A DNA stretch of 39,189 nucleotides, taken from the IMG/VR virus record IMGVR_UViG_2703718862_000013. One strand, written 5' to 3'. Both the position numbers and the translations under genes were made by a program. A model generated the notes under the pieces. That model was not told the origin of the DNA. It worked only from the letters and a program-made list of their open reading frames with translations, and did no database searches. The first letter of the stretch is position 1, and each line of letters starts with the position of its first letter. Of this stretch, positions 1,040-39,189 are shown one piece after another. The stretch comes from a virus. Its lineage: Duplodnaviria > Heunggongvirae > Uroviricota > Caudoviricetes.

Positions 1040-1210
1040 GTTGATGCCTTTCTCATGCAATCGATCGACAAAAACGATCGATTCGATTTGTTTAATTGAT
1101 ACAACAAATAGATTGAAAAGTCATCAACAATGATTCAGGGCGGTGATTATTTACTTAAAGAAAACGAAGAGTTAGGCGGTGAAAACGATCATAAAATGAT
1201 CATTTTATTG
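1040..1210 (-). promoter_or_regulatory. Candidate mom operon regulatory region with two palindromic GATC pairs
   Basis: CGATCG-acaaaaa-CGATCG (1051-1069) and GATCAT-aaa-ATGATC (1187-1201) upstream of com. Confidence 0.35.
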
Positions 1211-1275
1211 ACTTTTTATCCAGTGAAGGTAGGATCGCGCGTATATGTAGTATGTTTCAAATCAACAGGATACTA

Positions 1276-1314
1276 CATAAAAGGGAAACCCAGCATAGCT
1301 GGAACTATGCTGGG
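1276..1314 (-). terminator. Intrinsic terminator, minus strand, insulating the com-mom unit
   Basis: Perfect 10-bp stem CCCAGCATAG/CTATGCTGGG (1289-1314), 6-nt loop, U-rich tract after it on minus strand. Confidence 0.5.
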
Positions 1315-1501
1315 CCGATTTAGACAAGTTTGCATCAATGCTTTACTTCGGGACTACATAAATGGCGACTCAGATAGCGCGAACTATTCTGGGTCAATCT
1401 GTAAAAAACTGCATCAATGCTTCACTCTGAGCTCGTGGTGTATCCTATGATATTCCCCGGCCTCCTGTAAAGCAGAGATGCATCTGTTCAGGCAGGAGAA
1501 A

Positions 1502-1708
1502 ATGGATAAACTGACCACCGACCAAAAGTTACAGGCTGCGCGAATTGCAGCTGATATCACAATTGCAGCAATGACATCCACCAGTTGTGTCTTTACCTCT
1601 TTTCATACAGCTGGTGATTCATCAGCTATGCAATTATGGAACGCGTGCTTTTCTGATGTAATTCGGGCAATCAGCGAGTCAACTGACCCTCACGAACCGC
1701 AAAAATAG
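1502..1708 (+). CDS. Hypothetical small protein (68 aa from MDKLTT)
   Basis: AGGAGA Shine-Dalgarno before ATG at 1502; converges on 1671..1871. Confidence 0.3.
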   Translation: MDKLTTDQKLQAARIAADITIAAMTSTSCVFTSFHTAGDSSAMQLWNACFSDVIRAISESTDPHEPQK

Positions 1709-1871
1709 CGCATCTTGGGGTACACAGGATCTGCATCGCTATCCACATTGCAGTGGTGAAGTTTCGATCCTGTAATGTATTTTCATCAAGTCCTGAACGT
1801 AGCGCATTGATAATTTCTGCGCTTAATATTTCCAGACCTTTGGTATCGGGCTGCTTTTTGTTCTTGTCCAT
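1671..1871 (-). CDS. Hypothetical small protein (66 aa)
   Basis: GAGGAA Shine-Dalgarno 7 nt upstream of ATG; follows terminator/promoter-like element. Confidence 0.4.
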   Translation of the reverse strand: MDKNKKQPDTKGLEILSAEIINALRSGLDENTLQDRNFTTAMWIAMQILCTPRCAIFAVREGQLTR

Positions 1872-1907
1872 GATTATTTCCTCTGACTGGTATATACATC
1901 GCCCATG

Positions 1908-1945
1908 AAAATCAAACCGACAGGAGAAGCTGTCGGTTTGTATTG
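1908..1945. terminator. Bidirectional terminator-like hairpin
   Basis: Stem AACCGACAG/CTGTCGGTT with T-rich flanks on both strands; sits after stop of 1946..2191. Confidence 0.45.
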
Positions 1946-2191
1946 TTACATCATGGCACTGTCAGTTCCGGGCTGAACCGGCTCTGGTTGCTCTACGGGC
2001 TGAGGCTCATTCTCCGTGCTGTTTTCAGCCGGAGAATGGCCAACCATTCGGGCCAGCACTTCATCAACATATGCGTCGATTTGTGCCTCAAAATCCTTGC
2101 GAACCTGCGCCTTCAGCACGCGGTTCACTTCTTCAGAATAAAGTGCCTGTTTGACAAGCTCTTCAGTAACCGTGCCTTTAATCTCTGGCAT
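1946..2191 (-). CDS. Hypothetical protein, acidic with Pro/Glu-rich C-terminus
   Basis: ORF in operon position after esterase gene. Confidence 0.45.
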   Translation of the reverse strand: MPEIKGTVTEELVKQALYSEEVNRVLKAQVRKDFEAQIDAYVDEVLARMVGHSPAENSTENEPQPVEQPEPVQPGTDSAMM

Positions 2192-2226
2192 GAATATTCT
2201 CCTTTCCTTTTCTGGTTCACAAAAAA

Positions 2227-2412
2227 TTAAATCTGACCGGAGTCTTTCGGCTGCGGCATTACAGCACCGCTTTTTATCTTTTCCTCTGCGGCTGCATCAA
2301 TTTTATTTCGAAAATAATTTCGGATAATTTTGTAACCTCCGCTGAGGAGATAAAGTAGACACACACACGTGCAAAAATAAAGCATAAATGTATGTAGTAT
2401 TGGCATAATCAC
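2227..2412 (-). CDS. Hypothetical small membrane protein
   Basis: Single hydrophobic helix ILHTFMLYFCTCVCLLYLLSGGY; likely ATG at 2406 with GGTGA upstream. Confidence 0.4.
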   Translation of the reverse strand: MIMPILHTFMLYFCTCVCLLYLLSGGYKIIRNYFRNKIDAAAEEKIKSGAVMPQPKDSGQI

Positions 2413-2441
2413 TCACCATTTTAAATAAAATGAATTACCCG

Positions 2442-4523
2442 TCATTTATTCACATTAGACGGAGAGACCGCATCGTTAACCTGCACTTTAATTGTGTCAA
2501 ACAACATCGGGTAAGTGGCTGCATTGCCGGTAATATCGGTCAGTGTCAGTTGATCCACCGTGAACCCGGCATTCACCCACTTCACAAGTTCAAATGGTTC
2601 ACCATCTTTCCCGTCCAGAACTGGGGTAACACTCATGCTATTACCACCTGCAAACCGTAACGAGAGCGTATGCCATTCATGATCAAAGACACCATACGAT
2701 CCTATCTGTTGACTTCCGCTCCCTTTGTGATACATCACATTCAGGTTAGCTGAATCCGTTTGCAGGAAACATGATGCGATGAGGTTATTTTTTCCGTCAC
2801 CGTCAGGCCAGTTACTTACAGCCCAGTAAATACCAACACCATACCGGTTTTCCGCAATGCCCGCATCCGATGGAATTTTGAAACGGAGGGAAATATCACC
2901 ACCTCTGGCGAACAAATCCCTGGCATTATCAGCTGTGATCGGATGATACATTTTCCATGAGGCCATGCTGTTAGGCGCTTTATTCACCCTTAACGCTTTG
3001 TTACCACCTGTTGCAGCAGCATCCGTGACAAAGGTTGCTTTTCCGGAAGCCGCATTCCACCCCTGATCTTTCATTGGTTCTGTCGGGGCGTTTGCAGTAT
3101 ACGAAACGATGATCTTCATCTGATCGCTCACGTCCTTCACATCCCCGGTGGGTTCAGGCTCACTCTTACCGGTATCAGAATGTTCTGTTGCCGTTACACC
3201 GCGGAAGAAAGCAGATTTTTGTCCTGACAATGTCAGAATCGCTGTTGCCAGACGGTCTGAAATAATTCCACGGCGCGCCCATGAACTGAAATGGCTTGCC
3301 CTGTCGTTTGATGTCCAGTTAGTCGAATCGCGACTTATGGCACCATAATAGCCAATACCTGGAATATCCGGGTCTTCATCTGGATTATTTGTCGGTACAT
3401 TTTTTCCATTTTCATCCACAACAAATGGAACAAAGTGAATGTTCTTTGCTTCATTAGCATATTTGCCATAAACAGCTTTGTATTGTTCTGGATATGTATT
3501 TTTCCAGTAATACGTCGTATCACCACAGATCCACGGTACAGAAGCCATATCTCCGGCTGGAGATTGCGCAGAAAAAGCCGAAAGTTCACGCCTGAATGTT
3601 TCGACCATCGTCACAAACAGACCGGAATGTTCAGCATGTTTTCCTGTTTTCAGATCATTCTCGCCCTGCATCCAGACAACGGACAGGAGAATATTTCTGG
3701 GGTTACTGCTGAGAGCCGCTTTTGTTCGGTTAACAAGATCGCTGAACAAAGGTTTATTGACTCCCCAGCGCGATGATGCAGATGTTGCTCCGGAAGCTTC
3801 AGTAAATTCACCATCAGCACCATCGGTAAATGCAGAGCCTCCTCTGGCACAGGGAACCAGAAGGATACCAGCCTCTTCCGGGATAAAGGGCAGGAGTTTT
3901 TTTGCAATATGCAAACCCTGGCCGACACAACCATACTGACCTTTTGAAAGATCTGCTTTTGGATGATTATGGTTACTCATATCCAGCACATCATGAAGAC
4001 AGTGATCTGCCGGAATTATATCGTTGTAGGCGCATTCAACCCCGCCAGGTGTAACCGTGTTACGGCGAGCCAGCTGTTTAATACGTGGATCAGGTCGATC
4101 ATAGGTATCAGGCAAAGGAAGACCTTCACCAAATGACGATGCATTCGACTGACCAGCAATAACAACCACGTAATACCAGGACGGAGTTTGACCTGCAACT
4201 TTATCTCCTGCTGAGGAAGTGTATGTTTCCGCATTGTTCCAGTCTGACGGTTCAGTAGTACCGGCAACATCAGCACTTAACGGAATGACAGCACCAATAC
4301 CCGCTCCGGTAATTTCCACGTTCGGATCACCGGATACTGGCCTTACCCACAGGCAATCCCGTGTATTAAAACTGATGAGACAGTCAGCAAATGTCATACC
4401 TCCTTTCGTTTCAGCCGGAGGAAAGGGAGCCTCAAGAAATGCCGCTGTACCACCGGAAACTTTAACGGTAAAGTTTCCGGGCATTGATGATAGTTGAACC
4501 CATTTGGACGTCATAATATTCAT
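2442..4523 (-). CDS. nanS-p: NanS-p-like sialate 9-O-acetylesterase (SGNH/SASA domain) with N- and C-terminal extra domains
   Basis: VVVIAGQSNA...GEGLPLP, PRIKQLAR, LHIAKKLLPFIP, VPCARGGSAFT, WMQGENDL, CGDTTYYWK, EDPD..GYYG, ARRGIISDR match recalled NanS (YjhS) family; AGGA RBS. Confidence 0.75.
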   Translation of the reverse strand: MNIMTSKWVQLSSMPGNFTVKVSGGTAAFLEAPFPPAETKGGMTFADCLISFNTRDCLWVRPVSGDPNVEITGAGIGAVIPLSADVAGTTEPSDWNNAETYTSSAGDKVAGQTPSWYYVVVIAGQSNASSFGEGLPLPDTYDRPDPRIKQLARRNTVTPGGVECAYNDIIPADHCLHDVLDMSNHNHPKADLSKGQYGCVGQGLHIAKKLLPFIPEEAGILLVPCARGGSAFTDGADGEFTEASGATSASSRWGVNKPLFSDLVNRTKAALSSNPRNILLSVVWMQGENDLKTGKHAEHSGLFVTMVETFRRELSAFSAQSPAGDMASVPWICGDTTYYWKNTYPEQYKAVYGKYANEAKNIHFVPFVVDENGKNVPTNNPDEDPDIPGIGYYGAISRDSTNWTSNDRASHFSSWARRGIISDRLATAILTLSGQKSAFFRGVTATEHSDTGKSEPEPTGDVKDVSDQMKIIVSYTANAPTEPMKDQGWNAASGKATFVTDAAATGGNKALRVNKAPNSMASWKMYHPITADNARDLFARGGDISLRFKIPSDAGIAENRYGVGIYWAVSNWPDGDGKNNLIASCFLQTDSANLNVMYHKGSGSQQIGSYGVFDHEWHTLSLRFAGGNSMSVTPVLDGKDGEPFELVKWVNAGFTVDQLTLTDITGNAATYPMLFDTIKVQVNDAVSPSNVNK

Positions 4524-4613
4524 CCTGTTCCTGAATAAACAGAATTATCATATCCACAGACCGATAAACGCCATTTTGCGTTAATTCAGTAAAGGCCCAA
4601 CAAAGGGAGCGTC

Positions 4614-5174
4614 TTATTTTTCCAAAACGCTCGCAGGATAATAACGATAAAGGGTTGAAAGGCCGATATCAAAAATAAGTGCCACCTGTCTTCGGCTGAC
4701 CCCCCCGGCCAGTAAACGCCCGACCTGCTCGTATTGTTCCTGCGTGAGACGACGGGGTCTGCCGCCGGTTCGTCCCCTTTCACGGGCAGCTGTAAGACCA
4801 GCCCGTGTCCGTTCGACAATCAATTCACGCTCCATTTCTGCCAGCGCACCCATTATGTGAAAAAAGAAGCGCCCCATGGGGGTTGACGTATCAATGCTGT
4901 CAGTAAGACTACGAAAATTTATCCCCTGTTGCTGTAATTCATCTGTCAGCGCAACAAGGTGGCGCATACTGCGCCCCAGCCTGTCCAGTTTCCAGACCAT
5001 CAGCGTGTCACCGGGTTTTAGTTTCTTCAGTGCCCGCTTCAGTCCCGGCCGCTGCGTTGTTTTTCCGCTCATTTTATCTTCAAAAATCTGCTCACATCCT
5101 GCACATTCCAGCGCATTTCTTTGTAAACCTGTGTTCTGGTCATTTGTTGATACGCGTATATAGCCAATCAGCAT
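4614..5174 (-). CDS. gin: Site-specific DNA invertase, serine recombinase of Gin/Hin/Pin/Cin family
   Basis: MLIGYIRVSTNDQNT...GDTLMVWKLDRLGRSM...GRPRRLT is near-identical in pattern to recalled Mu Gin; adjacent to invertible segment. Confidence 0.95.
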   Translation of the reverse strand: MLIGYIRVSTNDQNTGLQRNALECAGCEQIFEDKMSGKTTQRPGLKRALKKLKPGDTLMVWKLDRLGRSMRHLVALTDELQQQGINFRSLTDSIDTSTPMGRFFFHIMGALAEMERELIVERTRAGLTAARERGRTGGRPRRLTQEQYEQVGRLLAGGVSRRQVALIFDIGLSTLYRYYPASVLEK

Positions 5175-27735: not shown

Positions 27736-28066
27736 TCGTGGCCGCCTCACTGATTTGTGAAATGAGTTGCAGGGTGCGTTGCTGGTTTGCCAGCACCAGA
27801 CGGGCTTCGTCCCGTTCGCGCACAAGCACATGATTATTGTCCTCAAGGCGCTGCGTCTTCTGGTGCATTCCCCATACCACGGCAGCCAGCACGCTCATCA
27901 CCCCCAGCGCCGCCATACAGCCTCCGGCAATCAGGGCCGGTAAGGGATTATTCACCGCAGCCACAGCACACCCCGCAGCAGCACAACGGCACACAGCAGC
28001 GCAATCATGAGCGGTCGCCAGAAGCGGTTCAGACTTTCGGCAAATCGTAGCGACATAACCATTCAT
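27566..28066 (-). CDS. Inner-membrane spanin (i-spanin), start uncertain
   Basis: N-terminal TM segment followed by coiled-coil; directly after endolysin. Confidence 0.55.
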   Translation of the reverse strand: MNGYVATICRKSEPLLATAHDCAAVCRCAAAGCAVAAVNNPLPALIAGGCMAALGVMSVLAAVVWGMHQKTQRLEDNNHVLVRERDEARLVLANQQRTLQLISQISEAATNEKQQNIQHSEGQQSVVRRSLAAVPAASAPVPDDVADRVRRAVCEIRACEAGADPR

Positions 28067-28529
28067 CCGCCGAACGGCGGGCCTCAAGACCGGGGAGTTT
28101 CACCCCCTTCGAATAAATCCAGCGGATGTACTGCTTACAGGACGCGGGCATCTGCCCGGCATTGATCAGGCGCAGAAGCGTGGAGTTGCGGAAGTTCGTT
28201 TCACCAGCCCAGAAGATCCACGAAGCCAGCGCCACCGTCTGACCACGGGTAAGCGGCACCTGAACACGCCGATCAATGGCCGCAAAGGCCCATTTCATGT
28301 CCTTTTCCAGTAGTTCCAGGCATTCTTCATCCGTCAGGGTCATACCCGGTTTCACATCCGGGCCGGTATGGCCGTAACAGATGGTTGGTGTACCGGTGGG
28401 ATCGATATACGTGGAGTTTTCTTTCCCTTCCCAGTAACCGGTGTAATGCGTGGCAATCGTGAACGTCCCGGCACCGGCCAGAACAAGGGCAATCAGCTTT
28501 TTACGCAGTGGTGCGGGGAGTTTTGGCAT
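28029..28529 (-). CDS. lys: SAR endolysin (phage lysozyme)
   Basis: Hydrophobic N-terminus LIALVLAGAGTFTIA; YIDPTG..TICYGHTG and NFRNSTLLRLIN match recalled P21-type lysozyme. Confidence 0.85.
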   Translation of the reverse strand: MPKLPAPLRKKLIALVLAGAGTFTIATHYTGYWEGKENSTYIDPTGTPTICYGHTGPDVKPGMTLTDEECLELLEKDMKWAFAAIDRRVQVPLTRGQTVALASWIFWAGETNFRNSTLLRLINAGQMPASCKQYIRWIYSKGVKLPGLEARRSADEWLCRYDLPKV

Positions 28530-28600
28530 TGTTACGCTGTCTCATGATGTTCTCTGAGTCAGCGTAACGGTGAAGGAAAGGCGGCAGGCTTTGCGGAATA

Positions 28601-29023
28601 TCAGAAAAGTGGCGGTTGCGTTCTTGCCAGATGCAGACGGCGCTGTTCGCGTATGACGGTATAAATCTGGGTTTCTGACATCCTGTAATGGCGGCGCAGG
28701 GTTTCAATTTTTTCGCCCTGGCTCCAGCGGGAAAAAATCTCATTATTGCGCAGTTCGGTGAAAAGGGATTCACCGACCGGGAGATAATAACCACGCCCGC
28801 CCATGTACCCGGCCTGTGCGGCCGCAACTTTACGGGCAAGCATTCCTGCCTGAGCAGGTTCAATCCCCTGACGGTGCAGTTCAGCACTGATCACATCAAC
28901 CAGGTCCCGCAGCGTGCCGGGCCAGTTCTTTTTCAGCTCATCATCAGGAATGTCATCCAGACGGTCAATCAGCGCGTGCAGCTGTTCGCTGTCACCAAAC
29001 ATGCTCATCTGTGTTTCAGCCAT
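28601..29023 (-). CDS. Mor/C-family transcriptional activator
   Basis: C-terminal HTH region ...YYLP.G.SL...LRN.EIF..W.....I..L...Y..S...IY.VIR..RR...QPPLF resembles recalled Mu Mor; Mor versus C not distinguishable here. Confidence 0.75.
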   Translation of the reverse strand: MAETQMSMFGDSEQLHALIDRLDDIPDDELKKNWPGTLRDLVDVISAELHRQGIEPAQAGMLARKVAAAQAGYMGGRGYYLPVGESLFTELRNNEIFSRWSQGEKIETLRRHYRMSETQIYTVIREQRRLHLARTQPPLF

Positions 29024-29055
29024 ACCCGCCTCCGGTCATCATTACACAGGGCAAG

Positions 29056-29088
29056 TTTAAAATAAAAATCCCGCGCTGTGGCGGGATT
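29056..29088 (-). terminator. Intrinsic terminator hairpin, copy 1
   Basis: AAATCCCGC-GCTGTG-GCGGGATTT with U-tract on minus strand. Confidence 0.6.
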
Positions 29089-29363
29089 TAGAGGCGCTGT
29101 AAATCATAACCCGAAATGAGCTGTGTATTTATTGATCATTTTCCGGTGTAACTATATGATAAAGATCGTTTTTATTTTTAAAAATACAAACCCTGAAGGA
29201 GTTTTTCTTATCAAAAAGCTTGTGCATATTGCGGGTTATTGTTGTTTCATCAACATGAAAACCAATTATCCCAACTCTTAAAGCACACCAGGCTTGCTCC
29301 AGTGCAAAAACAAATAATTTCAGTCTGCCTGACAGCGTTCCACCGGAATAAAGGAAGATATCC

Positions 29364-29786
29364 ATGAAACAACCTCCATCTTTGCTTTTATCGTGCCCAC
29401 CAGAACTGGCCCATGAACTCAATGATCTGGCGAAAGAGTATAAACTTACAAATCATAATATAGAAGCAGCAACACTTAGTGCTGCCGGAAGCGATATTGT
29501 ATTGATCGTTCTGGCCGCAGCTTCATGCGATGGGTTCTGGCAGGCATTAGCCAGTATGTTTCAGACGTGGTTACATCGTAAACCAACAAAACAAACACCC
29601 CCGGAAAAGAAAGTTATTCGTAGCGTCATTGTTCGTAGCTGGGAACACTATCAGGAGACAACTAAACAAACTGAATTTTATAACTTTGATGCTGATGAGC
29701 TGGCTAAATTGATAGCGTTATATGAAAAACCAGATGAAACAATTGGTTGCATAATCCCGTCAGAAACGGAAATTCAGGAAAAATAA
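29364..29786 (+). CDS. Moron-encoded hypothetical protein (140 aa), opposite strand to surrounding operon
   Basis: Strong AAGGAAG Shine-Dalgarno; AT-rich island; stop abuts terminator hairpin. Confidence 0.5.
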   Translation: MKQPPSLLLSCPPELAHELNDLAKEYKLTNHNIEAATLSAAGSDIVLIVLAAASCDGFWQALASMFQTWLHRKPTKQTPPEKKVIRSVIVRSWEHYQETTKQTEFYNFDADELAKLIALYEKPDETIGCIIPSETEIQEK

Positions 29787-29809
29787 AATCCCGCACTGTG
29801 GCGGGATTT
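29776..29809 (-). terminator. Intrinsic terminator hairpin, copy 2 (immediately after gemA stop)
   Basis: AAATCCCGC-ACTGTG-GCGGGATTT with UUUUAUUUUU on minus strand. Confidence 0.6.
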
Positions 29810-29812
29810 GGG

Positions 29813-30322
29813 TTAACAGGGGAATGATTTTTCATACAGCCTGCAAACGCGCTCATAACTCATCACTGCACGCTCCGACATATCCAGGGCTGCCAGCATT
29901 TTGCGGCGGTGCCAGCGTTTGAGACGCTCCAGCACATCAGAGGCCAGCTCGGGGTGTTGCTCCAGCCACTGCCAGTTAGCCACACCTTCGCCGCCGTTCT
30001 GCGCGGCCGTCTGCGATTGCACCCAGCGGTTAAGGGCCGTTTCCGCACCATCAGAAATAAAGCCCTGCCGGTGCATCACTTTCCAGATGGCGCGAATTTT
30101 GGCGGTCACCGTACCCGGCTTTAAGGCCCGGTTAACCGGTTTCTGACGCACTTTAAAACCGCGTTTTTTGAAAACATCCAGTACGCGGGATAACTCATCC
30201 GGTGACATATCCCGGCAACTGGCTTTACCGGTGGCTGCCAGCAGTGCGGATGTATAGGTTTCATCATCCAGAGCAAGCTCGCGTTTTGCCACATGAATGG
30301 CAGATATCAGTTTTCCTCTCAT
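29813..30322 (-). CDS. gemA: GemA-like protein (Mu gp16 family)
   Basis: LISAIHVAKRELALDDETY..LL...TGK.SCRDMS..EL..VLD..KKRGFK matches recalled GemA family N-terminus. Confidence 0.7.
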   Translation of the reverse strand: MRGKLISAIHVAKRELALDDETYTSALLAATGKASCRDMSPDELSRVLDVFKKRGFKVRQKPVNRALKPGTVTAKIRAIWKVMHRQGFISDGAETALNRWVQSQTAAQNGGEGVANWQWLEQHPELASDVLERLKRWHRRKMLAALDMSERAVMSYERVCRLYEKSFPC

Positions 30323-30630: not shown

Positions 30631-30955
30631 TGTGTATCTCCCGTAATTCCGGTAAAGCCGAAATATGGCACCAGTGCGTCACCTGTCCATCCTCATCTTC
30701 AAGGCAGGCTCCGGTTTCTTCATCAACAAAAAAACCTTCATACCCGATATGGCCGATGCGCAGCTCCTGTCGGTGACCGTACTGAACAATCAGTACAACA
30801 GCCTCCATATCAGGCGGGAAAGCATCATTCAGTGAATGCCAGGGATAACCGCGCAAATCCCCGAAATAAACCCCGGTCAGGGTTCCGCCACAGACCGGCA
30901 TCCCGGCGGCACATACCAGAGGTTCGTCTGATTCAACAAATAAGGTCGTTATCAT
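30623..30955 (-). CDS. Hypothetical early protein
   Basis: ORF in operon. Confidence 0.4.
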   Translation of the reverse strand: MITTLFVESDEPLVCAAGMPVCGGTLTGVYFGDLRGYPWHSLNDAFPPDMEAVVLIVQYGHRQELRIGHIGYEGFFVDEETGACLEDEDGQVTHWCHISALPELREIHNG

Positions 30956-31503
30956 GGCGTTAACTCCCGTAATACAGCGTCCCCGGCAGTCCGGCGATGG
31001 TGATAAATAAAATTCACCGTACTCTCGGATAATTCAAATTTCTCGCCTATTTCCCGGAAGGTAAGACGTCGTGGTGATTCAGCATCCCGTAATTCACGAA
31101 TAAGATGAACATCATCGTCAGGTATACGGGTGAAGGGCAGCAATTCTCCGTATTTTTTCATGCTTACGCCAATATATCGCGCCCGATTGTGGACAGAATC
31201 CCGGTCTCGCCCCAGATATTCTCCTATTTGCTTACCGGTCATCGTTCTGGCATTTTTTCGGATAAATTTATCTTCATCATGTTTAAATCTTGGACGTTTG
31301 CATTTGAGCAACTCCGGGTAAGTACCGCGTAATAAAACAATCCGGTTATGTACACCCCAGAAACTTCTTTTTACCCTGACAGCAATATCCTTAACCGGGG
31401 TGGATGAATAAAGCGCAATCAGCAGCGCATCTTCTTCAGGTGTCCACGGACGGACATGAGCGGGGGCGCGACCTTTTCGCCCCATGGGTTGTAAAATCAT
31501 CAT
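30952..31503 (-). CDS. Putative DNA-binding protein with repeated HTH-like segments
   Basis: C-terminus ...LTFREIGEKFELSESTVNFIYHHRR loosely resembles Mor/C HTH. Confidence 0.45.
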   Translation of the reverse strand: MMILQPMGRKGRAPAHVRPWTPEEDALLIALYSSTPVKDIAVRVKRSFWGVHNRIVLLRGTYPELLKCKRPRFKHDEDKFIRKNARTMTGKQIGEYLGRDRDSVHNRARYIGVSMKKYGELLPFTRIPDDDVHLIRELRDAESPRRLTFREIGEKFELSESTVNFIYHHRRTAGDAVLRELTP

Positions 31504-33198: not shown

Positions 33199-33729
33199 TT
33201 ATTTATTCAGTCCGGCGTCCTGTTCAAAAGGCTCGACATAAAAACTTTCAGCGCCTTTATTCACCTTAATACCGGCAATGCCTTTCACTGCATCCGGCTC
33301 CGCCAGGACCGCTTCCTTGTTCACTTCCTCTTTCGTGCGGATGAATCGCTCAAGCCCCATACGGCGCAGCATTTCAATCACACCTTCCACATCACGACTG
33401 ACGCTGCATGATGGATTCCCCAGTCGCCATGACACCGTTCCGGTGGTCAGATTGGCAGTTTTGGTTTTGCCGCCGTTCGTCAGCTCATCACGGTTGGTTT
33501 TGCACCAGTCCTGAATCCCCTTAAAAAGCACTTTGATTTCTTTTTTAAGGTTTTCAATCTGCGGCGTATAACGGGCGGTGATTTCTGCCACTTCATCATT
33601 CATCGCTGTTTCCAGGCGCAGCGCCTCTCGCTGAATATCGCCCAGGGTGCGGATATCGCGGCTGACCTCTTCACGGGTCTGCGGTGCCGCCTCTGCTGCG
33701 GCCTTTAATTTTGTAACGCGTTTTGCCAT
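33199..33729 (-). CDS. gam: Gam host-nuclease inhibitor (Ku-like DNA-end-binding protein)
   Basis: RDIRTLGDIQREALRLETAMNDEVAEIT...WCKTNRDELTNGGKTKTANLTTGTVSWR...ERFIRTKEEVNKEA...PFEQDAG closely matches recalled Mu Gam. Confidence 0.85.
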   Translation of the reverse strand: MAKRVTKLKAAAEAAPQTREEVSRDIRTLGDIQREALRLETAMNDEVAEITARYTPQIENLKKEIKVLFKGIQDWCKTNRDELTNGGKTKTANLTTGTVSWRLGNPSCSVSRDVEGVIEMLRRMGLERFIRTKEEVNKEAVLAEPDAVKGIAGIKVNKGAESFYVEPFEQDAGLNK

Positions 33730-36063: not shown

Positions 36064-36098
36064 AACCTGAGTCACCCCTCGGGTTATTTTTTTTATTT
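36064..36098 (+). terminator. Terminator-like hairpin plus T-run on plus strand at the A/B junction
   Basis: AACCTGAG-tcacccc-CTCGGGTT followed by ATTTTTTTTATTT. Confidence 0.35.
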
Positions 36099-38188
36099 CA
36101 GGCCAGCGGATCATTTTCTTTTAATTTCGCTTCGAGCAGTTGCAAACCCCGCTGGAAATTACGCTCGTATTCTTCGTCAGGTTCATCGTCAGCGACTGGT
36201 TGCTGAACGGTCACCGTATTACCCACAGGGCGGTATATGTTTTCCAGCCATGGCTCCTGCGGCTTGTGCTCCAGCACGTTGACAACCTCATCCTCGGCAT
36301 CACGGATTTTTTCCTCTGCGCGTTTACGCATACCTTTAAGGCGCTGCTGCTGTTTGTAGTATTCCGCGCTGACAGGGAAGGCTTCGCGTTTATTGCCGTC
36401 CCATACCGCCTCGCAAATCACGCTGCCATCCGGGCGGCGTACGGTAATTCGTTCGGCATCATGAATGTCATAGCTGATAAGCACTTTGCGGCCATGTTCA
36501 TCACGCAGCTCGGGCGCGTAGTAAATATTATTCAGCCAGCGTATTTCACAGCGTCTTACAGGGCGTTCCACCATCGGCCGGAACATGTCCCGCAATTCCA
36601 CATCGGACAGCCATTCAATTTCCGTGTCCTCTTCCGCCAGGCGTTTTTTTCTGAACTCCGCCGGGCTGTAATGTTTACCGTTCGGCTTTATGGGTAATTC
36701 ATCGTGCGGCCGGTTGTTGTACCACTCAACGCCGTCACGAATGGCATCAATCAGTTCAGACCAGGACGGTAAATCACGCATCGCTGACTGCTGCCGGGCG
36801 TTCAGCCGCTTGCCCTGTTGCAGGGCACTGAATGCCGAGCGTAAATCGCGGTTGGTTTTACGTAACGTCTCGCGATCTGCACCTTTCCCGAAATAGGTGC
36901 GGTATTTACGGGCTATGCGCATCGGTAATGTGCGGTTAAGCCGTTCGATAATGCCCCGTCCCTGCGGATTACCGGCAATCCCGGTCGGGTGATTAATCCC
37001 CAGTCGCGGTAGTATCCCCACAACCTCCTTATCCAGGATGTCGGCCGTTTCCCCCGAGCCATTATCCGAGTAATACAGAAACGGTTTGCCGTGATGGCGA
37101 ATGCCGTGCTGTATGGCACCGGCTACGGCGAAAACATTTTCAGCCAGGTCAAGGCTCCAGCCCACCACAAAGCGCGTGCCACCGTCGATAACAAAGGTCA
37201 CTTCCGGTGCAAATGGTCGCCCGTGAACCGGGTGCGCACATTTCAGCTTCATGCCGTGACCGTCACCAATCCAGACATAATTCACCGGCATTCTGGACCA
37301 GTCGCGGCGCGTGAATCCCTCAAGCTGGCGGTATTCACTGCCGGTCACCCGGCCTTTTTGTTTCACCACTTCCGGCAGTTTCTTCATCGCGCGGCGAATG
37401 GTGTCATAAGAGGGCATGATATCGAGCATATAAGGCTCATCAGCGTGCCGGTGCTGCCATTCGGCGACAAAATCCTCGTAAGCCTCGGTCATTGGTCGGC
37501 CGTTTGACTGGCGATACTGCGCCAGAAACTCGGGCAACCAGCTAATATCTTCGGCTTTTATTTCCTGACGTTTACCCGGTGCCAGTAAAAGTAGGCGTTC
37601 AGCGGCGTTCTGCGCCTTGTTAAAGGCCGCAATCCAGCGTTTCAGCGTGATTTCACTCAACGCGCGGCTGTTTCCCTTTTTGGCGTTCGCCGTTTCAACC
37701 ATTGCCACAATGCGTTCGTCCAGTTGCGAGCGTGACAGACGGTCAACAATAAACCGGATAGCTTTAGCGCAGCTGAAACCGGGTTGTTGCGCGAATTTAA
37801 GCACCTCGCTGACAATCGCAATTCGTGCATCGGCCACCTGGCGCTGTTTTTCAGTCAGTGCATTGATACGTTCGACCATCAGTTGGGGTGATCCGCGATA
37901 TGCCTCCACCGCATCAACCACGGCAGGTGAGCGTCTGGCCTTTGTCACCACCGGAACCGGTGACTCATCGGCTTTTTGCGCCATCAGTTGCAGGGCGTAG
38001 CGTTCACGTAATGCCTGCTGCGTCACTTCAGGTAAACAGTCGATGCTGTATTCAGTTGCTTTAGATCCTGAGCGACGACGGGAACAACAGCTTTTCCCTT
38101 GTGCGTAACGTTGTAATGCCTGGCGAATACCTTTTGTAGTTGCAGGCATTCCGGGCGCACCAATCAGTTCTTTTGCAATGAAATACAT
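36098..38188 (-). CDS. A: MuA-like DDE transposase
   Basis: 696 aa; WIGDGHG and SDNGSGE catalytic-core-like motifs; N-terminal DNA-binding domain; between ner and B. Confidence 0.9.
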   Translation of the reverse strand: MYFIAKELIGAPGMPATTKGIRQALQRYAQGKSCCSRRRSGSKATEYSIDCLPEVTQQALRERYALQLMAQKADESPVPVVTKARRSPAVVDAVEAYRGSPQLMVERINALTEKQRQVADARIAIVSEVLKFAQQPGFSCAKAIRFIVDRLSRSQLDERIVAMVETANAKKGNSRALSEITLKRWIAAFNKAQNAAERLLLLAPGKRQEIKAEDISWLPEFLAQYRQSNGRPMTEAYEDFVAEWQHRHADEPYMLDIMPSYDTIRRAMKKLPEVVKQKGRVTGSEYRQLEGFTRRDWSRMPVNYVWIGDGHGMKLKCAHPVHGRPFAPEVTFVIDGGTRFVVGWSLDLAENVFAVAGAIQHGIRHHGKPFLYYSDNGSGETADILDKEVVGILPRLGINHPTGIAGNPQGRGIIERLNRTLPMRIARKYRTYFGKGADRETLRKTNRDLRSAFSALQQGKRLNARQQSAMRDLPSWSELIDAIRDGVEWYNNRPHDELPIKPNGKHYSPAEFRKKRLAEEDTEIEWLSDVELRDMFRPMVERPVRRCEIRWLNNIYYAPELRDEHGRKVLISYDIHDAERITVRRPDGSVICEAVWDGNKREAFPVSAEYYKQQQRLKGMRKRAEEKIRDAEDEVVNVLEHKPQEPWLENIYRPVGNTVTVQQPVADDEPDEEYERNFQRGLQLLEAKLKENDPLA

Positions 38189-38604: not shown

Positions 38605-39189
38605 ATGAACATGAAAAAAAGTTCTTTTCTTGACGAAGGAAAAGAACCAGTAATCGAGCGAATATTTCGCCTTGCAGAGCGTTACAAATCGAGAAGTGAG
38701 GCGGCTAGGGCCTGGGGAATCAATATTCAGACATTGCAGAACTATTACAAAAGGAGAAACAATCAGCCACCACCACAGCCAAGAAAGCACCATCTCCAGA
38801 ACATTGCTGAAAAAGAACATGTATCAATGGAGTGGCTAATCTATGGTTATAATAATGAGTCAATCACAAAAAAAGAACTATTAGAACAAATAGAAAGAAC
38901 AAAAAAACAAGATGTAAATGATGGTGACTCCATCATCATGAGGGCGTGGGACTCGCTAACTTCATCTGAACAAGAGATTTTGTCCAATTTATTGATCAGA
39001 AAAGGGGCCGAGTTACTAACCATTTTACTTGATACTGATATTCAAAAGCTGCACTCATTGAGTGGGGTCAAAAGAGCATTGGCATTGAGTCTGCAAGAGT
39101 TACCCGATGATACTGTAAGAGAGATTTATGAAGAATGTGAGGCTAAGGTTAATCATTTAAATGTAACCCAGAAAAAGGCCGGTGCGTAA
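38605..39189 (+). CDS. Prophage repressor (c-position), HTH DNA-binding protein
   Basis: Divergent from ner; HTH-like SRSEAARAWGINIQTLQNYYKRR; AAGGAAC RBS; stop is last codon of window. Confidence 0.65.
   Translation: MNMKKSSFLDEGKEPVIERIFRLAERYKSRSEAARAWGINIQTLQNYYKRRNNQPPPQPRKHHLQNIAEKEHVSMEWLIYGYNNESITKKELLEQIERTKKQDVNDGDSIIMRAWDSLTSSEQEILSNLLIRKGAELLTILLDTDIQKLHSLSGVKRALALSLQELPDDTVREIYEECEAKVNHLNVTQKKAGA

Follow-up and report, generated by a model that had tools for sequence, protein, structure and literature searches.

Phage Mu governs its later genes through two paralogous activators, Mor for the middle promoter and C for the late promoters, with C encoded immediately upstream of the endolysin gene lys. 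The Mu-like prophage in IMG/VR record IMGVR_UViG_2703718862_000013 (39,189 nucleotides (nt), analysed over its whole length and called here the window) has a Mor/C-family gene between gemA and lys. The locus therefore raises three questions: which activator this gene encodes, what drives it, and what keeps lys from being expressed too early. Almost certainly the prophage has one activator, and it is of the C type. The explanation that we consider best overall, and towards which we lean somewhat, combines a C-type activator acting without Mor with a gate on lys of the kind known from gene e of phage T4. The three genes at issue are the following.

29813-30322, minus strand: gemA, last gene of the early operon (Pfam GemA, 1.3e-29; phmmer against Mu GemA, 1.4e-35).
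28601-29023, minus strand: sole Mor/C-family activator gene, C-type, 140 amino acids (aa) (Pfam Mor, 1e-30).
28029-28529, minus strand: lys, encoding an endolysin of the signal-arrest-release (SAR) type (Pfam Phage_lysozyme, 6e-37; 39% identical to Mu gp22).

A first-pass annotation of the window had recognised a single Mor/C-family gene and had named a profile search for a second paralog as the way to check this; the search was run, and the claim held. The product of 28601-29023 (minus) matches PF08765 with E=1e-30 and 106 bits against a cut-off of 24.9, with profile positions 2-107 of 107 aligned, and is thus a full-length family member; it also matches PHROG 532, 'late transcriptional activator', at 7e-45. 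Pfam scans of 30 open reading frames (ORFs), among them all annotated genes from B through lys and those of the com/mom end, yielded no further Mor/C match, and phmmer with Mu Mor and Mu C as queries picked out the activator gene alone among all 897 six-frame stop-to-stop segments. A custom hidden Markov model built from 150 diverse family members and run over six frames (--max) scored the activator at 1.4e-52 and the runner-up at E=0.23, and four small early or cargo proteins, compared with the family profile in hhalign, had probabilities of at most 2.2%. The end of the early operon, where the two-step arrangement of Mu has a second Mor/C paralog, has none here.

On sequence grounds, the lone activator is the orthologue of the late activator C of Mu, and Mor is absent. 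Residues 5-140 align to the known structures in the Protein Data Bank (PDB) with 7e-29 for Mu C (9l0x/9vw8) and 4e-11 for Mor (1rr7); the corresponding phmmer values are 1.9e-31 and 2.2e-13. In the trimmed family alignment, identity is 42% to Mu C, which ranks 16th of 149 sequences, and 31% to Mor, which ranks 142nd of 149. The residues invariant in the family, G75, G76, R77, Y80 and P82, form the GGR..Y.P linker, and the C-terminal helix-turn-helix (HTH) is present. Two motifs resemble clamp-binding sites: QMSMF near the N-terminus (residues 5-9) and QPPLF at the very C-terminus (residues 136-140). Both agree with the family consensus sequences Qx[D/E][L/M]F and QPDLF, the S of the former fitting the general form QL[SD]LF. 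Mu C requires the beta sliding clamp and needs two clamp-binding motifs, QHDLF and QPDLF, for its function, whereas Mor has only a partial N-terminal one (Ho and Harshey, PMC12867686). The closer structural match to Mu C, together with the presence of both clamp motifs, indicates that the retained gene is C and the missing paralog is Mor. Mu C (gp21), the closest solved homologue within the family, is also 140 aa long and also encoded directly 5' of a SAR endolysin gene; it differs in sequence (40-42% identity), in having Mor as a driver and in the gp18-20 genes upstream, no such middle-operon leader being found ahead of the activator gene in the window.

A lone activator is the ordinary condition among relatives of Mu. 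When 50,697 phage records were searched by tblastn at E<=1e-3, a threshold that a very divergent second copy could escape, 48 contained a Mor/C homologue, 34 of them one copy and 14 two. All of the two-copy records are Mu, D108, SfMu, Mu_3F6, PhiR68_1 or Yersinia vB_YpM phages; the one-copy records include the Vibrio Martha group, the BcepMu group, phages of Shewanella, Pseudoalteromonas, Pasteurella, Ralstonia and Klebsiella, and Mu-like inserts in Stx phages. The two-activator cascade thus appears to be the exception, confined to Mu, D108, SfMu and close kin. A profile search of genome contigs with the family alignment gave no matches, and IMG/VR was used instead: the order gemA-activator-lys is kept in 44 of 44 loci from that source and in 4 other fetched loci, with activator identities of 43-100%. 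The suggestion of the first-pass annotation that the cascade is organised differently from that of Mu is borne out in that Mor and the gp18-20 leader are missing and the sole family member is C-like; as a peculiarity of this prophage it falls away, this being the usual state among Mu relatives.

The same state can be recognised in published phages. SuMu, 3927AP2, phiMhaMu2, BcepMu, KS10 and the Vibrio Martha 12B12 group likewise have one Mor/C homologue between gemA and the lysis or structural genes. In SuMu, 3927AP2 and phiMhaMu2, lys lies directly 3' of a single 'mor', and C was taken to be lacking (PMC4553209); KS10 was annotated in the same manner, with a single mor-like gene (PMC2628397). 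The sequence studied here says the opposite of these papers, which call the gene mor and assume that C is missing. Since the lone activator is the C orthologue, the naming of this gene in papers and annotations of the clade appears to be reversed.

What drives the activator gene is the second question, and the region between gemA and the activator contains three elements that bear on it.

29786-29809, minus strand: early-operon terminator hairpin, directly 3' of gemA (terminator scan).
29066-29089 (element 29054-29089), minus strand: promoter-proximal terminator hairpin with T-run (terminator scan).
29082-29077 and 29059-29054, minus strand: putative activator promoter, GCCACA and TAAACT separated by 17 nt, overlapping the terminator hairpin and T-run.

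The first-pass annotation placed the activator immediately after gemA, in the position of Mor. Neither statement applies to the window: 789 nt separate the gemA stop codon (29813-29815) from the activator ATG (29023), and in the functional sense this is not the Mor position because the activator gene follows the early terminator. Adjacency does hold in relatives that lack the cargo DNA found here, such as that of O157:H7 strain PA20, where the gap is 69 base pairs (bp); the cargo-free layout is gemA, ~70 bp, activator, 71 bp, lys. The two hairpins of the spacer are near-identical, each of the form AAATCCCGC-N6-GCGGGATTT followed by a T-run. Their stems of 9 bp include 5 GC pairs and their loops are of 6 nt; with the tails TTATTTTAAA and TATTTTTCCT, they have the make-up of intrinsic terminators. 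The region of the 29786-29809 hairpin and the segment 29059-29089 form a 31-nt direct repeat, 90% identical and 720 nt apart. The early operon would therefore be expected to end at an intrinsic terminator just after gemA, with the activator gene behind this terminator, which appears here in duplicate around the cargo.

The order of hairpin, T-run and a hexamer of the form TAnAnT is kept 5' of the activator gene in ~10 lineages. The -10-like hexamer after the T-run is TAAACT in the Escherichia coli group and TATAGT, TATATT, TATACT or TATAAT elsewhere, and across lineages a good Shine-Dalgarno (SD) sequence and ATG stand ~25-30 nt beyond it; in the window the SD is GGAGG, at ~29029-29033. Among the relatives, whose loci are designated L with a number, the hairpin sequence is changed in L013, L011, L049 and L057, and the arrangement is the same. 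In the cargo-bearing L020 (an IS4 element), L043, L047 and L008, the insertion boundary lies in the left arm or loop of the hairpin, and the cargo variants retain beside the activator gene only the DNA from about GCCACAGCGCGGGATTTTT onward. Cargo has thus replaced the DNA upstream of about -36, which indicates that the sequence there is dispensable. A Mor-type site, which would lie at about -44, is hard to reconcile with this, in keeping with the lack of Mor. These data suggest that the activator is expressed from a weak promoter of the sigma-70 type embedded in the hairpin and T-run; that this promoter is the gene's own and activator-independent, possibly with some read-through of the terminator in addition, we put forward tentatively, as something rather short of an even chance. 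In Mu, too, a terminator hairpin and T-run are followed closely by the -10 of the C-gene promoter, Pm overlapping the early terminator t9.2. There, however, the terminator follows mor and Pm needs Mor at about -44, whereas here the terminator follows gemA, the -10 is ~6 bp nearer the hairpin, and DNA upstream of about -36 is dispensable.

Two other sources of activator transcription have to be considered against an own promoter. The activator could be the last early gene, 'Mor-like' in function, with no promoter of its own, reached from the early promoter through a leaky terminator and activating the late genes directly. Mu mor does end the early transcript, single-activator phages have been so interpreted (PMC4553209), and cargo-free relatives place the activator ~70 bp after gemA. 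Yet a canonical terminator (9-bp stem, T5AT4) intervenes, in the window even two copies and 700 nt of cargo transcribed antisense; a -10-like TAnAnT is kept right after the T-run in ~10 lineages; and the protein is C-like, not Mor-like. We regard this alternative as unlikely, though it deserves to be kept in mind. Less probable still, and in our view doubtful, is that a non-homologous early protein plays the part of Mor at the activator promoter, the candidate being an HTH regulator of 183 aa (30952-31503) that matches PHROG 323, 'transcriptional regulator', at 5e-58 and has a C-terminal HTH. The poor -35 of the activator promoter would suit such a helper. On the other hand, the regulator shows no homology to Mor/C (hhalign probability 2.2%); cargo has taken the place of the DNA beyond about -36, where it would be expected to bind; and tblastn did not detect it in L007 and L008, two Salmonella relatives that are covered over the whole early region and have the same layout of terminator, promoter and activator. 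The protein is present in the E. coli lineage, L010 and L043; as a general analogue of Mor it was rejected on account of the Salmonella relatives, and it lacks a homologue of known structure. The further idea that the terminator dyad mediates autoregulation was set aside: AAATCCCGC resembles the box AAATCCCGCAAAA of the promoter at gene I (see below), but the likeness fails in relatives and the spacing differs, so that it appears to be a coincidence.

One point tells against an activator-independent promoter: a constitutive promoter of a lethal late activator would need to be silenced in lysogens, for which no mechanism was identified. The dependence of C-type activators on the clamp and on replication (PMC12867686) is a possible source of the missing timing control, by analogy with Mu. 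The question about this locus thereby becomes sharper, namely how the gene of a lethal late activator is turned on, and kept silent in lysogens, without Mor.

The third question concerns lys itself, and the relevant elements lie between the activator stop codon and the lys ATG, with one further promoter copy at gene I.

28590-28596, minus strand: late-promoter box CCGCAAA, within CTGA-N4-CCGCAAA, 23 nt upstream of the -10.
28561-28566, minus strand: predicted -10, TACGCT, of a Plys-like late promoter, inside the 5' arm of the leader hairpin; predicted start at ~28554.
28531-28568, minus strand: lys leader hairpin, with 5' arm 28568-28555 (GTTACGCTGACTCA), loop 28554-28545 and 3' arm 28544-28531 (TGAGACAGCGTAAC).
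20637-20672, minus strand: second late-promoter copy, CCGCAAA-N23-TATGCT, 5' of the protease/scaffold gene I, which is the position of PI in Mu.

Read along the transcribed strand, the lys leader consists of TGA (the activator stop codon), TATT, CCGCAAA, 23 nt ending in GT, TACGCT, GACTCA, GAGAACATCA, TGAGACAGCGTAAC, A and ATG. The pattern CCGCAAA (CCGCAGA in L007), 22-23 nt, TAYNNT is kept 5' of lys in all relatives, whose activators are 53-100% identical, and TAYNNT precedes the lys start codon by 33-39 nt in each of them, as it does in Mu (TAGACT). When the leaders are aligned on the -10, CCGCAAA and the ATAAYCCC half of the C site in Mu share one register, and L049 and L050 have the intermediate CGTAATCCCC. 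Plys and PI of Mu likewise have a -10 but no -35, a box in this register and a leader of ~25 nt. Box and -10 together match the window 4 times against 0.56 expected, and the two intergenic matches are those at lys and I. The activator may thus turn on late promoters at lys and I, each composed of a CCGCAAA box, 23 nt and TAYNNT, and by analogy with Mu C this activation would probably be coupled to replication through the two clamp-binding motifs. The I copy is present in the E. coli group, and the G-I spacer of the Salmonella relatives differs; a search for CCGCAAA-N23-TAYNNT found no copy at com/mom (Pmom-like) or before P (PP-like). One feature speaks against the I copy as a promoter: its -10 (TATGCT, 20642-20637) is 6 nt from the I ATG (20630), which is odd. 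No SD sequence is visible for gene I, and with the -10 so close its late mRNA would have little or no leader. A 5-bp inverted repeat, CCGGC/GCCGG, adjoins the ATG and has the I hexamer in its loop (window 20625-20675, minus strand).

As the first-pass annotation stated, lys directly follows the activator, beginning 71 nt past its stop codon, and the gap contains a perfect 9-bp repeat, GTTACGCTG (28531-28539) and CAGCGTAAC (28560-28568), with a 20-nt spacer; when the gap is shuffled, an inverted repeat of this perfection turns up in ~0.3% of cases. The pairing can be lengthened to 14 nt (28531-28544 and 28555-28568; 93% complementarity), which includes a single A.A mismatch and leaves a loop of 10 nt. 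Just 1 nt separates the 3' arm from the lys ATG, and the 5' arm contains the -10, the predicted +1 at ~28554 coming just after it. The predicted RNA fold has -20.1 kcal/mol (z -5.7 to -6.4), so that a stable hairpin would cover the initiation region. In Rfam, no family reached its gathering score in the window, and 28300-30000 gave only sub-threshold chance matches.

Of the two roles that the first-pass annotation had offered for the repeat, an activator site or an RNA hairpin, the comparison of relatives favours the hairpin, in which pairing is kept and sequences change. The arms are GATACCTTTTGCTCA/TGAGTGAGTGGTGTT in L007 (z -5.8), GTTACTC/GAGTAAC in L043, GTTATTC/GAGTGAC in L008, CTCTCGGCA/TGCCGGAGAG in L011, TTTATCCTGAGTCGA/TCGACTGAGCGATAAA in L053 (z -4.6), ATCCTT/AAGGAG in L050 and CGTACCCTGT/ACAGCGGTATG in L049 (z -3.0), and in each lineage the 5' arm covers the -10 and stops at most ~7 nt after it, at the predicted +1. 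Within the E. coli group, the hairpin shows no changes other than A to G at the A.A mismatch and T to C within its loop, whereas the promoter spacer varies freely. Because the hairpins cannot be aligned by columns, pairing was quantified by position, with control genes: the expected number of base pairs between -44..-23 and -21..+3 is 10.9-16.8 in 7 of 8 sequence classes, compared with a mean of 4.8 at 31 other gene starts in the window, 4 of which reach 10.9.

The other role is not supported: the repeat sits on the downstream side of the conserved -10, right against the start codon, while Mor/C sites lie upstream of -35, and its half-site is unique. More generally, the repeat might serve as an operator bound by a dimeric protein, which could be a lys repressor or the activator itself, and a perfect 9-bp dyad over the -10 and +1 is indeed a typical position for a repressor operator. 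Its exact half-site, however, occurs nowhere else in the prophage, matches with one mismatch number 9 against 7 expected, none of them at a promoter, and the arm spacing is 10-20 nt; between relatives the arm sequences are replaced completely with complementarity retained, and Mor/C sites are known to lie upstream of -35 (PMC12867686, 10.1101/2025.05.02.651988). We consider an operator very improbable. As a recurrent operator or activator site the repeat was rejected, the half-site being neither enriched nor found at other promoters.

We propose instead that the lys leader hairpin gates the translation of read-through RNA, a proposal that we rate about as probable as its negation. A terminator scan from the activator stop codon (28601) to lys detected no terminator-like site, and since no terminator separates the two genes, activator transcripts would run on into lys. 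In this read-through RNA, the two strands of the 14-bp hairpin would be the -10 region and the 14 nt that precede the lys AUG, and their pairing would hide the ribosome-binding region. The RNA from the late promoter would begin just past the 5' arm, so that it could not form the hairpin and would be translated. The predicted unpaired probability of the ribosome-binding region (-18..+5) in read-through and late RNA is, respectively, 0.30 and 0.55 in the window, 0.20 and 0.50 in L007, and 0.18 and 0.43 in L008; the contrast is weaker in L011 (0.41 and 0.50), L013 (0.46 and 0.55) and Mu (0.47 and 0.47).

A rationale for such a gate may be seen in the endolysin itself, whose N-terminus has a hydrophobic segment rich in G and A. 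SAR endolysins are exported without a holin, and untimely translation would therefore be costly. The precedent is gene e of T4, which is also a lysozyme gene: as the passages on it in PMC3014915 (citing McPheeters et al. 1986) have it, a hairpin in the early read-through RNA hides the initiation region, late promoters lie in the DNA of the 5' strand, and the late RNA is translated. In T4 (gene e, and also soc, 49 and I-TevI), as proposed here, transcription reads in from upstream, a hairpin covers the initiation region, and a late promoter stands in or before the 5' arm. T4 is an unrelated phage with no sequence similarity at this place, and its promoters are of the gp55/gp33 kind rather than served, as they would be here, by sigma-70 and a C-type activator; the mechanism has been demonstrated in T4 and is predicted in the window. 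Mu differs in having a hairpin/terminator right after C, a C-lys gap of 94 nt and no significant leader hairpin, whereas the window has a gap of 71 nt, no terminator after the activator and a strong leader hairpin. The E. coli clade as a whole combines the shortest C-lys gap and the lack of a post-C hairpin with the strongest leader hairpin. Mu (L001 10450-10484) has a 7-bp pairing of the same geometry, GCCAUCA/UGAUGGC, between the lys start codon and the bases that come right after the -10 of Plys; this pairing is weak (z=-1.2) and may be a vestige or chance.

If the true start of lys mRNA were upstream of the predicted one, the hairpin would be present in late mRNA as well and could be a standing structure that inhibits translation or stabilises the message, to be opened by a phage factor as Mu Com acts at the mom hairpin. 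The 3' arm adjoins the AUG, the phage has genes for zinc-finger proteins of the Com type and the TraR/DksA type, and the lys start site is predicted rather than mapped, all of which would suit this idea. It accords poorly with the position of the sole conserved -10-like hexamer, inside a 5' arm that ends within ~7 nt of it in every lineage, and no conserved single-stranded binding motif is evident; we think it improbable, though less so than an operator.

The gate itself is weakened by several observations. The -10 and +1 of lys are predictions. The pairing statistic is 6.2 in L013, where the hairpin is weak, and 4.3 in Mu, which has no significant hairpin, and the 31 control gene starts are not ideal, most of them lying within operons. 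RNAalifold on six lineages found no column-wise consensus structure: the hairpins correspond in position but do not strictly covary, and the only clean compensatory exchange is a G-C to U-A change in a shared outer stem. Finally, the SD sequence of lys is poor (GAGA, 10 nt from the AUG), so that translation may be controlled in another way.

Whether an entire clade of enterobacterial Mu-like phages shares a Mor-less cascade with an activator-independent promoter behind the early terminator, a lys gate with the promoter inside the hairpin, and the early terminator as a recurrent cargo site, is more conjectural, and we would give this generalisation somewhat less than an even chance. Neither the overlap of early terminator and promoter nor the lys hairpin is described in the papers on single-activator phages. 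To those papers the present analysis adds that the lone gene is C and not Mor, that the activator promoter probably overlaps the early terminator, and that the repeat can be explained by a testable model with a precedent in T4 gene e. On this model, premature lysis would be avoided without a terminator between activator and endolysin, by the same logic as in gene e; if true, unrelated phages would have arrived by convergent evolution at one device for timing lysis.

The DNA between the two spacer terminators is the cargo mentioned above.

29090-29785, both strands: cargo ('moron') cassette, GC content 39% against 53% for the window.
29132-29160, plus strand: cargo promoter-like site.
29364-29786, plus strand: cargo ORF of 140 aa.
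29129-29365, minus strand: cargo ORF of 78 aa.

With a promoter-like site of its own, flanking terminators, atypical composition and variable presence, the cassette has the attributes of a moron. The plus-strand ORF could end at the 29786-29809 hairpin, so that this terminator may act in both directions. Neither cargo protein had a match in Pfam, PHROG or PADLOC. The cassette was found in 4 of 5,426 complete E. coli genomes, or 4 of 231 related prophages; the listed relatives at 91% identity lack it. A Salmonella relative has a cassette with 60-62% protein identity at the same spot between gemA and the activator. Elsewhere, too, the early terminator hairpin is a recurrent point of cargo insertion (L005 4125-4838, L008 9204-10000, L020 1484-3000, and the spacers of L043, L047, L053 and L057), and in other lineages the inserts code for a protein of 113 aa or one of 309 aa or for signal-peptide proteins (106 to 143 aa), or consist of an IS4 element. 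The terminator between gemA and the activator thus appears to be a hotspot for uncharacterised cargo genes.

The window as a whole is a complete Mu-like prophage, transcribed from the minus strand and extending from the c repressor end to the com/mom end. Its remaining landmarks are as follows.

38605-39189, plus strand: c repressor gene.
36098-38188, minus strand: A, preceded by ner.
33199-33729, minus strand: gam, preceded by B.
30952-31503, minus strand: gene of the 183-aa HTH protein, preceded by gp11- and gp12-like genes.
Downstream of lys, minus strand: spanin genes, then packaging, head and tail genes.
4614-5174: gin.
815-1060 and 124-861: com and mom, respectively.

The prophage of E. 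coli STEC2018-607 is 100% identical across the region tested, and of 5,426 complete E. coli genomes, 231 contain a relative of ~91% identity, many O157:H7 strains among them. In STEC2018-607 (L003 31559-32662) and in O157:H7 PA20 (L004 21178-21782), the c-repressor end adjoins a truncated bcsA (cellulose synthase) gene, which points to interruption of cellulose biosynthesis at one locus in distant strains. In the identical prophage in RefSeq, the gp36-like head-tail connector gene (~17700-18120, minus strand) is annotated as a pseudogene interrupted by a stop codon, and this copy of the prophage may therefore be defective. In the identical prophage NZ_CP075697, RefSeq (PGAP) annotates a 'tRNA-OTHER' in the F-G interval, corresponding to ~21318-21405 (plus strand) of the window; ARAGORN and Rfam gave no support for it at this site. 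Whereas gin and com/mom are adjacent in Mu, here they are separated by ~3.5 kb of extra DNA (window 1100-4600). This DNA includes minus-strand genes for a protein of 693 aa that combines SASA carbohydrate-esterase and DUF6645 domains (2442-4523) and for a DUF826 protein (1946-2191). The com ORF has at its 5' end a perfect 9-bp inverted repeat, AATCGATCG-N7-CGATCGATT (window 1059-1083), which recalls the translational-control hairpins of Mu com/mom.

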